From Octopus vulgaris (taxonomy: Eukaryota), in contig OX597842.1 of NCBI GenBank assembly GCA_951406725.2, positions 17,608,001 to 17,672,000 of the forward strand: a stretch of 64,000 bases of DNA. Direction: 5' to 3'. A program made the translations under genes and the position numbers. Under the pieces are notes generated by a model. That model was not told the DNA's origin, searched no databases, and saw nothing but the letters and a program-made list of their open reading frames with translations. This document shows positions 11,601 to 38,135 of the stretch, in pieces (the first letter of the stretch is position 1; each line of letters opens with the position of its first letter).

Positions 11601-14600
11601 TCCTCGTTTTATTTTCAATATAGCGCACTTTTCTATCCCAAATTCCATACCAACGTCATTTGAGAAAATGCGGATAATATTTACAAGATTTTCAAACTGT
11701 TTCTCATTTTTCGCATAAACTTTTGTATCGTCCCTGAAAAGGAGATGATTTATCTGACCATTTCCTTTAACCAAATCGTAAGCAATTTTCACTTTTCATG
11801 GCCAATTCGAATAGTAACGGAGATAAGCTATCACCTTGAAATATTCCACGTCTGATGTTCACTTTTCCGGGTTTTTATTTTTCTCCGATCATTTCAGTAT
11901 TCCAATGTTCCATACTTTCATTTAGCATTTTCTCCATGCTTTTTTTTTTGCTATTTCAAACCTGCTCCCTGTTTTACTATCTAACTGTGTGCTATCATGT
12001 CATACGCTTTTTTCTTATCTAACCATGCTACATTCACTCCTGCCAATCATATACCTCTGCAATTTCTAATTATCATTTTATCATCTAATAGGTGATCTTT
12101 TGTTGCCCTACTTTGGTTCCTGCATCCTTTCTGTTCTTTTGGTAATAGATTGTTACTTACCTGATGTTTGCAAGTTCCCTTTCAAGGGGTCCTTGACGCA
12201 TTAGCAGCGTTCGCTCGCTTGACATCCATGCAGGGGCGCGACCTTGCTGCAGGCAGTCGTCCTGTTGCACAGCGATCCTCTCTTCTTCTTCTTCTTCTTC
12301 TTCTTCTTCTTCCAATTCTTCTTCTTCTTCTTCTTCTTCTTCTTCTTCTTCTTCTTCTTCTTCTTCTTCCAATTCTTCTTCCAATTCTTCTTCCAATTCT
12401 TCTTCTTCTTCTTCTTCTTCTTCTTCTTCTTCTTCTTCTTCTCATTATTATTATTATTATTATTATTATTATTATTATTATTATTATTATTATTATTATT
12501 ATAAAAGAATCAGAATAATTAGAGCGTAGAACACAATGCTCGTGGTATTTAATTCCGGATCTTTATTTTCCGAGTTCAATTTCCGCCGAGGTCGACTTTG
12601 CCTTTCATCCTTCAAGGAACGATAACATAATGTGACAAACGTCATCAGATCGTAGAGACGCGGGATTTCATAGACAGCAACATAACCGAGAGTGTCTCGA
12701 TATTGAATCAGTGTGTTTAAGAGGAATACTTCTAGGTTACGAAAGAGACTGGTACAAATGGATCAGAATGTGGAATGGTTCAATCTCGTCATCGGTGCTT
12801 TGGTGTAAGAAGAGCGCGAAGGTTAAAAGGCATTATGAGCATTATAACTAGGAAGAAAAGGGGATTTAAGGAGGAGTTTGGAAAGCGATGATTTAACACA
12901 TGAATTGGATCGATGTGTAATAATTATTTTGAAGTAGAATAGCAAAGAGTTTTAACTGCTAAATCGAAATAAGAATGGTGAGTGGTTATAAGTGTAGGAA
13001 TACAGGGTTGAGTAGACATGAGGTGGAGAAAGAAGGGGAGAGATTATGAGAAGGTTCTGTGTCAGCGAGGAAAAATATTTGTCTTGCATTTTAGAAGGAA
13101 GAGGTGGAAGGATGAAATTCACGAATATGTAGATGGGACAGTAAAAATGCTTTTAATTCGAGACGAACTTCAGAAAAGCTACACTCTACCAGGGTCAAAA
13201 GAACTTGGACACATCTTCACACCTACACTACCCCAGCATTTGGTCAGAAGCTACTATCCCTCTGGCATCCACTCCACCTAAGAGTCTTGACCAAGGAAGA
13301 GGCAGATCGAAAGCCCCTTTCTTGAGGTGATGTCACAACTCCTTTACTTCCGTTCCTGATATCTCTCTTCATTCCTCCACAGAACATCGATATGTCTTTG
13401 ATGTGGGGTCGATTCTTGCTGTTTTTGTCTTTTGTTTTTATTTATCCTGATTTTGTCAGGGTTTTCTAGTTCCTATAGATGCGACAAAACTTTTAGAAAG
13501 ACTCTGAAATCATGACTCATTAGTTAGTAGTCTGATTCTCTGACTCGTAAGTCAGCCACGTTTTCCTCTCAAACCCAATCACTTTCTGTCTTAATTTTGC
13601 ACTTCTAACGCGACATAGCATCTCGTCTTCTCATTTTCCTTCATTCTGTCTGTCTGTCTCTCTCTCTCTCTCCTCCTCTTCCTCCTATTTCTTGTCTTCT
13701 CTACTCTTTTTCTCCTGCACTCAATGTCTCACTCTTCCCCCCGCCACTGTTCTCTCCATCTCATTCTCGCCCTCCTACTCTCTCCCTTATATCATATCCT
13801 GGTCTCCTTTCTCTTCCTACAACTCTGCCACCCCCATTCTCTGAGATTTGTCACTTGTTCGAGTTTACTTTCCATTTGCAGGTGGAATTTCGGGTGAAAA
13901 GCGAATCTTTTTCTGTAGCATTCGTTTTCAATGGAAAAGGGACGAATTCTACATCGTGGTTCCAGAAAGATAAACTCATTGTAACGCCGTGGATGTGGGA
14001 TCCACAAACTTTCAATGCGAAGTATATATCATCTCCTTACTCATAATTAACATCTTTAATTATTTAATAATTGTTCTTTTGAACACTTTCACGGTGTATA
14101 TATAAAAGGAAAGTTTACTGATGTACTTTATGTCTTATTGTTGTATAATATTATAATTCCATAATTATAATCCTTTCCACTATAGGCAGAACGTCTGACA
14201 GTTTGTTGGGGGCGGGGGCGGTGGTTCGGGTTAGTCGATGTCATCGGTACCAGTGTCAAAATGGTAATTATTTCAACGACCTCCGAAAGGGTGATAAGCA
14301 AAATTGACCTCGGCGGAATATGAAATCAGAATGTATAGACGGACAAAATATTGCTAAGCATTTTATCCGGCATGCTAAAGATTCTGCCTGTTTGCCTTAT
14401 AATAATGATAATGTTTTCGTTATGAACCTTAAGGTTTGACAAAAAGATCGATGAGGGTACAATTGATTTTGTGTGGGATTACATTAAAAAAACCCATGTA
14501 AACATAGAAAATAACAAAAATATAAGAAAACAATTTATCAATTGTAATATTTGTAATATATTAGTTTCAGTTACCCGGAGTTTACCATCATGGATCACCA

Positions 14601-36500: not shown

Positions 36501-38135
36501 ATATCTTTAATTATTTAATAATTGTTCTTTTGAACACTTTCACGGTGTATATATAAAAGAAATGTTTACTGATATATTTTATGTCTTATTGTTGTATAAT
36601 ATTATAATTCCATAATAATAATCCTTTCTCCCGTAGGCAGAACGTCTGATAGTTTGTTGGGGGCGCAGGGGGGTTGTCGATTGCATCGGTGCCAGTGTCA
36701 AACTGGTAATCCTTTCAACGACCCCTGAAATGGTGATAGGCAAAGTTGACCTCGGCGGAATTTGAACTTAGGATGTATAGACGGACAAAATACTGCTAAG
36801 CATGCTAAAGATTCTGCCAACTCGCTGCCTTATAATAATGATAATGATAATGTTTTCGTTATGAACCTTAAGGTTTGACAAAAAGATCGATGAGGGTACA
36901 ATTGATTTTGTGTGGGATTACATTAAAAAAAAGCATGTAAACTTAGAGAATAACAAAAATATAAGAAAAACAATTTATCAATTGTAATATATTAGTTTCA
37001 GTTACCCGAACTTTACCATTGTTGATGACAACTGGAAGTTAGAAGCCAAAAGAAAAAGTGGAAATAAGGAAGAGTACGATATTTCTGACAAAACGCTGAC
37101 CGGTGGTAAGTAAAACATCGCCTCTAGAATTCAGTGTAATTCATTGTATAAATCTGTGTTGGCGTACGTGCATGCATGTGTGCGCGTGTGTGTGCATGTG
37201 TGTATGCATGCGCGCACAGCTGTGGTTTTCAAGAAGCATTGTCTCATAAACATAAATCTTTTAAATAGTTTTTCTTATCAGCCAAAACAATGCAAGTTGT
37301 AACAAAATATTAATAATACAAGTCAGTGGTTTTTACTCTTCTCTAGTGTTTCAGTATTTCGAAGCTAGGAATCCTTCTTCGGGAAATTTACGGAGAAACG
37401 GTGCTGATAACTGTTTTCCCTGCTCTCTGGCGTGTGATTATGAAGAGTTGGTTTGTGTTGCTATACACTGAACCGCAAAAGAAACGAGACATGTGTGTGA
37501 CTGCGAAATATGTTTTAATTTCTTTATGTCTGAGATAAATTTTGATAAATCTGATAAACCTATCAATGGATTCAGTGATAGGTTGAATATTTTTTCGATG
37601 TCTAAAAAGCATTACGGTGAAAAAGACAAAGACAGTCCGTGGATTGCTAGAAATCGGATCCGATACATCACCAACTCGCCTCGCTCCTGCCGCTCCGTTT
37701 TCGGAAAACAGGTTCACAGTTATTTGCGGAATGGTCAAATTAATTTCAATGACACAAAAACCTGAAATATTATCAATTTTATTTAGTGTTTTCAGCGGTC
37801 AACTTAGAAACAAACTTTACTTTTTATAAGGATATATATGTATGTATGTATGTATGTATGTATGTATGTATGTATGTATGTATGTATGTATGTATGTATG
37901 TATGTATGTATGTATGTATGTATGTATGTATGTATGTATGTACGTATGTATATATGTAAGTGTGTGTGTATGTATATATATATATATATATATATGGTGG
38001 GGGGGGGGGTTGTGTGTGTGTGATAATCATCCTGAAATTTAGAGTTAATTTCATTAATTTCTAACAATATTTTCAATTTTTTTTTCAGCTGTATATAGTT
38101 ACGAAGCCATGGTCATCTCAGTGATTTTGAAGTAG
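30502..38135 (+). CDS. Secreted PAN/apple-like domain protein, paralog 2 (239 aa); coding exons 30502-30832, 33359-33450, 36327-36472, 37002-37105, 38089-38135
   Basis: Same exon structure and phases as paralog 1; 720 nt open frame; exon 3 has an in-frame 6-nt insertion; all 8 Cys conserved. Confidence 0.85.
31045..31437 (-). mobile_element. tRNA-derived SINE in intron 1 of paralog 2; absent from paralog 1
   Basis: Reverse complement of the 3871 family; ends ..CTTACCACACAGCCACTCCTGCG. Confidence 0.85.

Follow-up and report, generated by a model that had tools for sequence, protein, structure and literature searches.

Positive selection and gene conversion in a tandem family of likely secreted PAN-domain genes in Octopus vulgaris

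A 64,000-nucleotide stretch of the Octopus vulgaris genome (assembly GCA_951406725.2, contig OX597842.1, positions 17,608,001 to 17,672,000 of the forward strand), here called the window, contains three repeat units of ~22–27 kb each, which belong to a tandem array of genes for likely secreted proteins with an N-terminal PAN/apple domain and a mostly beta C-terminal domain. We found that exons 3 and 4 of these genes contain a class of sites with a ratio of non-synonymous to synonymous rates (dN/dS, or omega) above 1, as in other positively selected multigene families, and that the paralogs exchange sequence by gene conversion. We are highly confident that the two processes act together. Positions are numbered from the first letter of the window unless a contig is named, and the features are collected in Table 1.

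Results

Positive selection in exons 3 and 4

An earlier note on this DNA had compared units 1 and 2 by hand, and proposed that the divergence of exons 3 and 4 reflects either strong positive selection on a binding surface or introns homogenised by conversion while exon variants are kept. Formal alignment reproduced its counts: exon 3 differs by 21 substitutions in 140 nt and one 6-nt indel, yielding 14 amino-acid changes and 2 purely synonymous codons, and exon 4 by 20 substitutions in 104 nt, yielding 14 amino-acid changes (13 within the exon and one in the codon that it shares with exon 5) and 1 purely synonymous codon. Exon 2 has 3 substitutions and the single amino-acid change reported for it, and the last 160 nt of intron 3, upstream of exon 4, have 4 substitutions in 142 unmasked columns and 2 indels, as had been counted. 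This intron stretch is the most favourable choice for the comparison. Of the 510 columns of intron 3 as a whole, 42 differ (8.2%), and 31 of these fall in a 215-column stretch (14.4%) that resembles a short interspersed nuclear element (SINE); intron 2 differs at 92/2598 columns (3.5%) and intron 1 at 106/1708 (6.2%). The excess of exon over intron divergence, described as several-fold, is real but amounts to only ~2-fold to 5-fold depending on the intron. Likewise, the description of the exon changes as almost all non-synonymous is right in its counts but partly expected, 81% of sites being non-synonymous. Exons 3 and 4 together have a Nei-Gojobori dN/dS of 1.79 (35 versus 5 changes; Fisher one-sided p=0.16) and the whole coding sequence has 0.76. 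Exon 1, absent from the note, differs by 10.3%, mostly silently (dN/dS 0.44). By itself the unit 1/unit 2 pair is only suggestive of selection.

The exon excess is clearly beyond chance once further paralogs are added to this pair. In the 17 loci that closely resemble unit 1 in their 3′ half, exons 3 and 4 have a nucleotide diversity of 0.18, the flanking intron one of 0.04–0.06 and the SINE one of 0.10. The note had also described variable patches on either side of an invariant core, and diversity is indeed 0.43 and 0.42 in the two exon 3 patches versus 0.04 in the core. We then fitted site models to 15 of the 17 close paralogs per exon (two dropped in each case for a frameshift or a lost acceptor), using our own GY94/F3x4 code, with branch lengths from M0 and empirical-Bayes site calls, rather than codeml. 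This extension of dN/dS to more paralogs, which the note had recommended, revealed a class of sites with omega above 1 in both exons. For exon 3, omega is 1.71 under M0, and M2a places 37% of sites at an omega2 of 4.43, with a likelihood-ratio test statistic (LRT) against M1a of 45.7; for exon 4, omega is 4.24 under M0, and M2a places 45% of sites at 11.5 (LRT 61.6). The first of the two proposed explanations, positive selection, is borne out.

The signal persists under several corrections. With gap-adjacent columns removed, the LRT is 33.2 (exon 3) and 68.8 (exon 4), with 32.4 and 67.9 for M8 versus M8a; on an intron-derived tree it is 71.6 and 90.9, and with double and triple changes allowed it is 27.5 and 56.4. 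In 12 neutral simulations, in which four blocks recombined freely, the LRT reached at most 13.6 and M0 omega ranged from 0.33 to 0.94. A tree-free comparison over 88 codons gives a proportion of non-synonymous differences (pN) of 0.205 versus a synonymous proportion (pS) of 0.120, and the fraction of 2000 bootstrap replicates with pN ≤ pS is 0.000; here codons were bootstrapped, the sequence pairs being non-independent. Selection is also detected in a second clade, of the type found in unit 3 (LRT 36.9 for exon 3 with 7 sequences, and 18.9 for exon 4 with 6 of the 7, one with a stop being dropped). As a control, exon 1 (18 sequences) has an M0 omega of 0.47 and an M2a p=0.08, indicating mostly purifying selection. 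The values for exons 2 (LRT 11.6) and 5 (LRT 15.9) are borderline with respect to the null range; these two signals are not secure because recombination raised the LRT in the null simulations.

Gene conversion and reshuffling among paralogs

The second explanation, homogenisation of introns by conversion, is also upheld; it acts alongside selection and does not replace it. Among 122 informative intron sites, the fraction of incompatible pairs is 0.33 within 60 nt versus 0.43 beyond 200 nt, and none of 2000 permutations was as extreme. Seven neighbouring segments have distance matrices that do not correlate with one another (r from −0.25 to 0.29, 0/21 below p=0.05), a comparison of low power in the short introns. 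The nearest neighbour among paralogs differs from patch to patch, and two loci with an identical exon 1 have exon 3s that are closest to different genes. In the unit 1 SINE, 6 of 201 positions differ from the copy at G000:C29:17457891, as compared to 21–30 for the other 15 paralogs, so this stretch is likely a conversion tract, judging by its sequence. The 14% divergence of the SINE-like stretch between units 1 and 2 arises because the unit 1 copy is close to one paralog only.

Larger segments are reshuffled as well. In four loci a 3′ half of the unit 1 type goes with a distant exon 1 (29–32% from unit 1), and in seven loci, including unit 3, a distant exon 3 (31–40%) goes with a close exon 1 (5–10%). 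Unit 3 (57424–62461) is a mosaic of a unit-2-like 5′ half and a distant 3′ half, with similarity lost at ~60730 in intron 2; its 3′ type occurs in six other loci. Silent diversity in the exons (0.105–0.12) is about twice that of the flanking introns (0.04–0.065), in line with partial homogenisation of the introns. CpG decay explains little of this silent excess; in exon 1 it accounts for 212 (20%) of the 1040 silent differences between pairs. Since conversion alone cannot yield pN > pS, selection is needed besides it.

The family in the octopus genome

Searches of the octopus genome itself, with 80 stretches fetched, identified 38 family loci on contig C29, 33 of them within 16.93–18.05 Mb and in both orientations. 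There are ~17 further exon 1 matches at G000:C8:78150000-78860000, a second cluster of older family members, and a few on C4 and C28. These counts are lower bounds; part of the cluster was fetched, and several loci were incompletely recovered. At least 12 of the 38 loci are broken by a stop, a frameshift or a lost splice site, and some of the single-base lesions may be assembly errors. A tandem array with broken copies and exchange between paralogs makes this a birth-and-death family. The nearest named proteins are uncharacterised entries of Octopus sinensis, O. bimaculoides and O. vulgaris, with exon 1 81% identical to P0001.

Several loci depart from the common arrangement. At G000:C29:17049000-17095000 there are ~10 copies of a putative 5′ non-coding exon (window ~2960–3050) without coding exons, six of them spaced ~2.76 kb apart. 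The locus at G000:C29:18337791 and protein P0008 share an exon 1 with a 7-residue tandem repeat inside the PAN domain. Two exon-4-like copies lie 3′ of a single exon 3 at G000:C29:18038130 and 18040269, a possible exon duplication, and the O. sinensis protein P0014 either has the C-terminal domain twice in tandem or is a fused gene model.

Spliced contigs of the family were found in three of the eight sequencing runs examined (X8, X12 and X9, from two studies). In a contig of X8, the end of exon 2 is followed directly by an exon 3 that starts with the bases of the paralog at G000:C29:17414190, and contigs of all three runs connect the core of exon 3 with exon 5 (joint 13981>15701), the intervening part being unresolved. 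Run X6 has neither an exon 2–exon 3 nor an exon 3–exon 5 joint, and there is no splice joint among those listed for runs X1, X2, X3 and X5, which may be DNA. A search for sequencing runs that contain the sequence listed none recorded as RNA. Family members are therefore spliced, and the evidence concerns the family rather than units 1 and 2 themselves. The exon 2 acceptor of the G000:C29:17414190 locus (L067) is deleted in the assembly, yet its exon 3 is spliced to exon 2 in X8, which points to an intact allele or a further copy elsewhere.

Protein domains and the position of the variable patches

A hydrophobic N-terminus, read as a signal peptide, indicates that the proteins are likely secreted. 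Structure models were those of O. sinensis relatives of the window protein (P0005 and P0013). The full-length P0005 model (predicted local distance difference test score, pLDDT, 87.4) has an N-terminal helix followed by a PAN/apple domain; its residues 34–123 align with the HGF N domain (3hms) at Z 10.6 and a root-mean-square deviation (rmsd) of 2.1 over 78 residues, and the top ten rows of the fold search are all PAN/apple or MANEC domains, placing it in the PAN fold, conserved cysteines included. Pfam gave no match in any of the five window exons, including the PAN domain of exon 1, and octopus relatives score at most 18.7 bits against PAN_1 and PAN_4, whose cut-offs of 21.4 and 27 are exceeded by non-octopus relatives. 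Sequence searches of the Protein Data Bank returned only weak PAN matches, and none of the 12 solved-structure matches at E ≤ 10 is a fibrinogen-related domain (FReD).

The C-terminal domain, modelled from P0013 with a pLDDT of 93.8, is mostly beta. By VIA-align its matches are TLDc domains, up to Z 5.1, and FReDs at Z 4.1–4.8 that are aligned end to end, among them ANGPTL3 (Z 4.8, rmsd 4.5, 116 aligned) and H-ficolin (Z 4.7, rmsd 3.5, 109 aligned). A best Z of 5.1 establishes neither a known nor a new fold. Foldseek gave no match at E ≤ 0.001 for either model; its comparison of the C-terminal domain with L-ficolin has E 0.067 and TMq 0.42. Fibrinogen_C was not matched in the five window exons, six octopus proteins or 15 further relatives. 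FReDs contain a disulfide-bonded ligand/calcium-binding subdomain. The octopus domain lacks this subdomain, the Cys-rich inserts of its relatives being deleted, and in units 1 and 2 it is without cysteine. At the sequence level the family is set apart from FReDs, and by its fold the N-terminal domain belongs with PAN domains. On these weak fold matches the C-terminal domain may be a stripped-down fibrinogen-like domain.

A profile search of 1.84 billion proteins gave 53 matches at E ≤ 0.001, headed by octopus proteins, after which come those with an unnamed invertebrate domain. Two residues, a Phe and a Trp, are invariant in 38/38 aligned sequences. Both lie within the exon 3 core singled out in the earlier note, and the core is therefore likely structural. 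We mapped the selected sites onto the relative's model by an alignment that is gappy at patch HV3. They fall on a hairpin between strands 33–41 and 48–53, a loop at 70–80, a hairpin tip at ~94–100 and residues 112–128, with some in strands. From the strand order of the model, most would lie at the end away from the termini, on the face opposite the PAN domain, and the patches may form a binding surface.

Relation to known families

Octopus entries named Apple domain-containing (O. bimaculoides LOC106880400 and LOC106867736; O. sinensis LOC118768100 and LOC118761632) belong to the same family, and O. sinensis P0022 aligns with the C-terminal domain of the window to the last residue. These are database entries, and we found no description of the family's size, its hypervariable patches or its selection. 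Literature searches, with subscription papers outside their scope, returned no paper on or naming this family. It is absent from the keyword passages of PMC9068888, PMC7656900, PMC12607849 and PMC10138644 and from the abstract and outline of PMC13669787, and had no match in parts of the supplements of PMC10138644 and PMC7693380. Cephalopod gene family expansions are mostly neural, sensory and structural (protocadherins, C2H2, S-crystallins, reflectins, suckerins), according to parts of PMC9068888.

The unnamed invertebrate domain follows PAN, ZP or EGF modules (mussel Potamilus P0018; P0027, P0043–P0066) and shares the core motif with the octopus proteins, but has two cysteine-containing inserts that are both missing in octopus. 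No Pfam family spans this domain in 14 of the 15 relatives scanned, and P0027 has only a sub-domain match to DUF7922. The octopus proteins resemble FReD proteins (ficolins, snail FREPs and PAN+FReD proteins) in being likely secreted and in joining a PAN domain to a beta domain that can be aligned with FReDs over its full length, and differ in having no sequence match to Fibrinogen_C or a solved FReD, no immunoglobulin superfamily domain and no long coiled coil. Atlas feature neighbours carry PAN + Fibrinogen_C or COLFI. Snail FREPs diversify by conversion and point mutation (in the part of PMC7588048 covered here); as far as the two were compared, the octopus variation is in the germline, between paralogs. 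PAN domains bind proteins or carbohydrates and are present in snail FREP and C-lectin candidates (sections of PMC7588048 and PMC13712769).

The evolutionary process itself is well known, for example from snake toxin genes. Three-finger toxins (ASSET; abstract of PMC2474615) and habu venom genes (passages of PMC6062510) are described as tandem paralogs with conserved introns, switched exon segments and KA/KS > 1. Their protein fold is unrelated to that of the octopus family, whose likeness to snake toxins lies in the genes.

Gene structure and other features of the window

The five coding exons of unit 1 encode an open protein of 237 residues, or 239 if the acceptor at 14565 is used, and those of unit 2 encode 239 residues. 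Exon 5, which lay outside the earlier note's finding, came to light through its conservation from paralog to paralog, and O. sinensis P0022 has a matching C-terminus; several NCBI models miss this exon (15690–15736), reading through the exon 4 donor or using intron sequence. Two tandem AG acceptors 6 nt apart (14565 and 14571) precede exon 4 and are kept in almost all of 33 loci. Both are used among NCBI models of relatives, and the upstream choice adds two residues. Two candidate exons were rejected: 9135–9213, which is out of frame and a high-copy repeat by read depth, and ~14913–15047, whose frame and acceptor vary among paralogs and which is used by one NCBI model (P0023).

Upstream of exon 1 in unit 1, an inverted and a direct copy of a several-hundred-base stretch were seen by eye at 5100–5776 and 5940–6375; the stretch resembles a small DNA transposon and has no counterpart in units 2 and 3. 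Fragments that by eye resemble long interspersed nuclear elements lie at 17357–18555 and 22386–25290. One is specific to unit 1 within the window and the other is common to units 2 and 3, at 96% identity.

Table 1. Exons and repeat of the three units, in window coordinates.
Feature	Position	Strand	Description and basis
Unit 1 coding exon 1	8650..8980	+	Likely signal peptide and PAN/apple domain; open reading frame and splice sites
Unit 1 exon 2	10893..10984	+	First strand and helix of C-terminal domain; conserved; AG/GT boundaries
Unit 1 exon 3	13882..14021	+	Patch HV1 ~13894-13922, conserved core, patch HV2 ~13975-14003
SINE-like repeat, unit 1 intron 3	14161..14396		Repeat matches and very high read depth
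Unit 1 exon 4	14571..14674	+	Patches HV3 ~14580-14612 and HV4 ~14624-14674
Unit 1 exon 5	15690..15736	+	Last coding exon: final strand and stop; 47 nt
Unit 2 coding exon 1	30502..30832	+	Alignment to paralogs
Unit 2 exon 2	33359..33450	+	Alignment to paralogs
Unit 2 exon 3	36327..36472	+	Alignment to paralogs
Unit 2 exon 4	37002..37105	+	Alignment to paralogs
Unit 2 exon 5	38089..38135	+	Alignment to paralogs
Unit 3 coding exon 1	57424..57754	+	2.7% from unit 2 exon 1
Unit 3 exon 2	60262..60353	+	Alignment to paralogs
Unit 3 exon 3	62310..62461	+	Distinct 3′ clade, 32% from unit 1; unit 3 exon 4 outside window

Discussion

We lean towards the view that this tandem family of likely secreted proteins, each with a PAN and a beta domain, is diversified by selection on the patches together with conversion, and that the patches probably form a surface that binds rapidly changing foreign molecules, with microbes or parasites as their most probable source. 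A conserved scaffold of likely signal peptide, PAN domain and core carries the four variable patches of exons 3 and 4, in which fresh amino-acid variants are favoured. The near-identical core and introns would supply homology for conversion, by which patches could spread and recombine while intron differences are erased, so that each locus would come to hold its own combination of patch variants. Whole gene copies are gained and lost, and the outcome would be a repertoire of binders to a changing target. The immune nature of that target is the least certain step, to which we give an even chance; microbes or parasites are ranked first by analogy, with venom and reproduction as the alternatives.

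Several observations count against this reading. The unit 1/unit 2 pair alone is non-significant (p=0.16), 5 of the 15 sequences used for each exon belong to loci broken elsewhere, and the site models are our own code with empirical-Bayes site calls in place of codeml. Recombination inflated the test in 2 of the 12 null simulations (LRT 9.4 and 13.6), and the patches have elevated silent diversity too (pS ~0.21), so that part of their divergence reflects older ancestry or multi-base change. With respect to the protein, the FReD match of the C-terminal domain is weak (Z 4.1–4.8) and tied with TLDc (to 5.1), and the domain is without both cysteine-rich inserts of the other invertebrate relatives.

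An account without positive selection, in which conversion homogenised the introns around old or relaxed exons, and alignment error, multi-base mutation and recombination mimic a high dN/dS, could draw on the reality of conversion, the roughly twofold excess of silent over intron diversity, the broken loci (at least 12 of 38) and the better model fit when multi-base changes are allowed. It is largely refuted, and we consider it very improbable: pN exceeds pS without any tree (0.205 versus 0.120), the test is significant after every correction and far above the null simulations, and the same patches are selected in the second clade while the intervening core is conserved. The same selection and conversion would also be expected of salivary or venom proteins that track prey targets, as snake toxins do. 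The conserved introns and switched exon segments match the description of three-finger toxins in the abstract of PMC2474615, the octopus proteins are likely secreted, and leech saliva contains proteins of the PAN fold (LAPP, Z 7.9; saratin, Z 4.8). None of six family accessions and neither of two motifs appeared in the part of the O. vulgaris posterior salivary gland proteome supplement that was covered, and the portion covered of a genome paper on octopod venom says nothing relevant about PAN/apple domains. Both are weak negatives, and we regard a venom role as unlikely.

Selection and conversion of the same kind could instead serve reproduction, with the proteins acting in spermatophore, sperm, oviducal or egg-coat recognition under sexual conflict or gamete matching. 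Gamete-recognition proteins are a classic class of positively selected secreted proteins in molluscs, and provide a precedent. The presence of spliced contigs in 3/4 runs and 0/4 runs is compatible with restricted expression, although the latter four may be DNA. The dozens of divergent paralogs, reshuffled patches and many broken copies would fit a repertoire better than a matched pair, and a reproductive role is doubtful as well. Recognition of microbes or parasites could be carried further. Tentatively, and as a possibility to which we assign a rather low probability, the family may be a germline antibody-like repertoire of at least 50 secreted PAN + mini-fibrinogen-like proteins, whose four patches form one face and are recombined like cassettes, an immune recognition system of the cephalopods' own and independent of the snail FREPs.

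Very strong diversifying selection (omega 4–13 in the patches) acts on a large array of octopus genes whose products are likely secreted, a family that we have not found in print and whose members are fragmented or mis-joined in current gene models. No solved structure clearly matches the C-terminal domain, which is modelled with confidence and is a candidate for a small binding scaffold. The pattern points to a molecular arms race in the octopus, and with the residues named, its target, whether pathogen, prey or mate, is directly testable.

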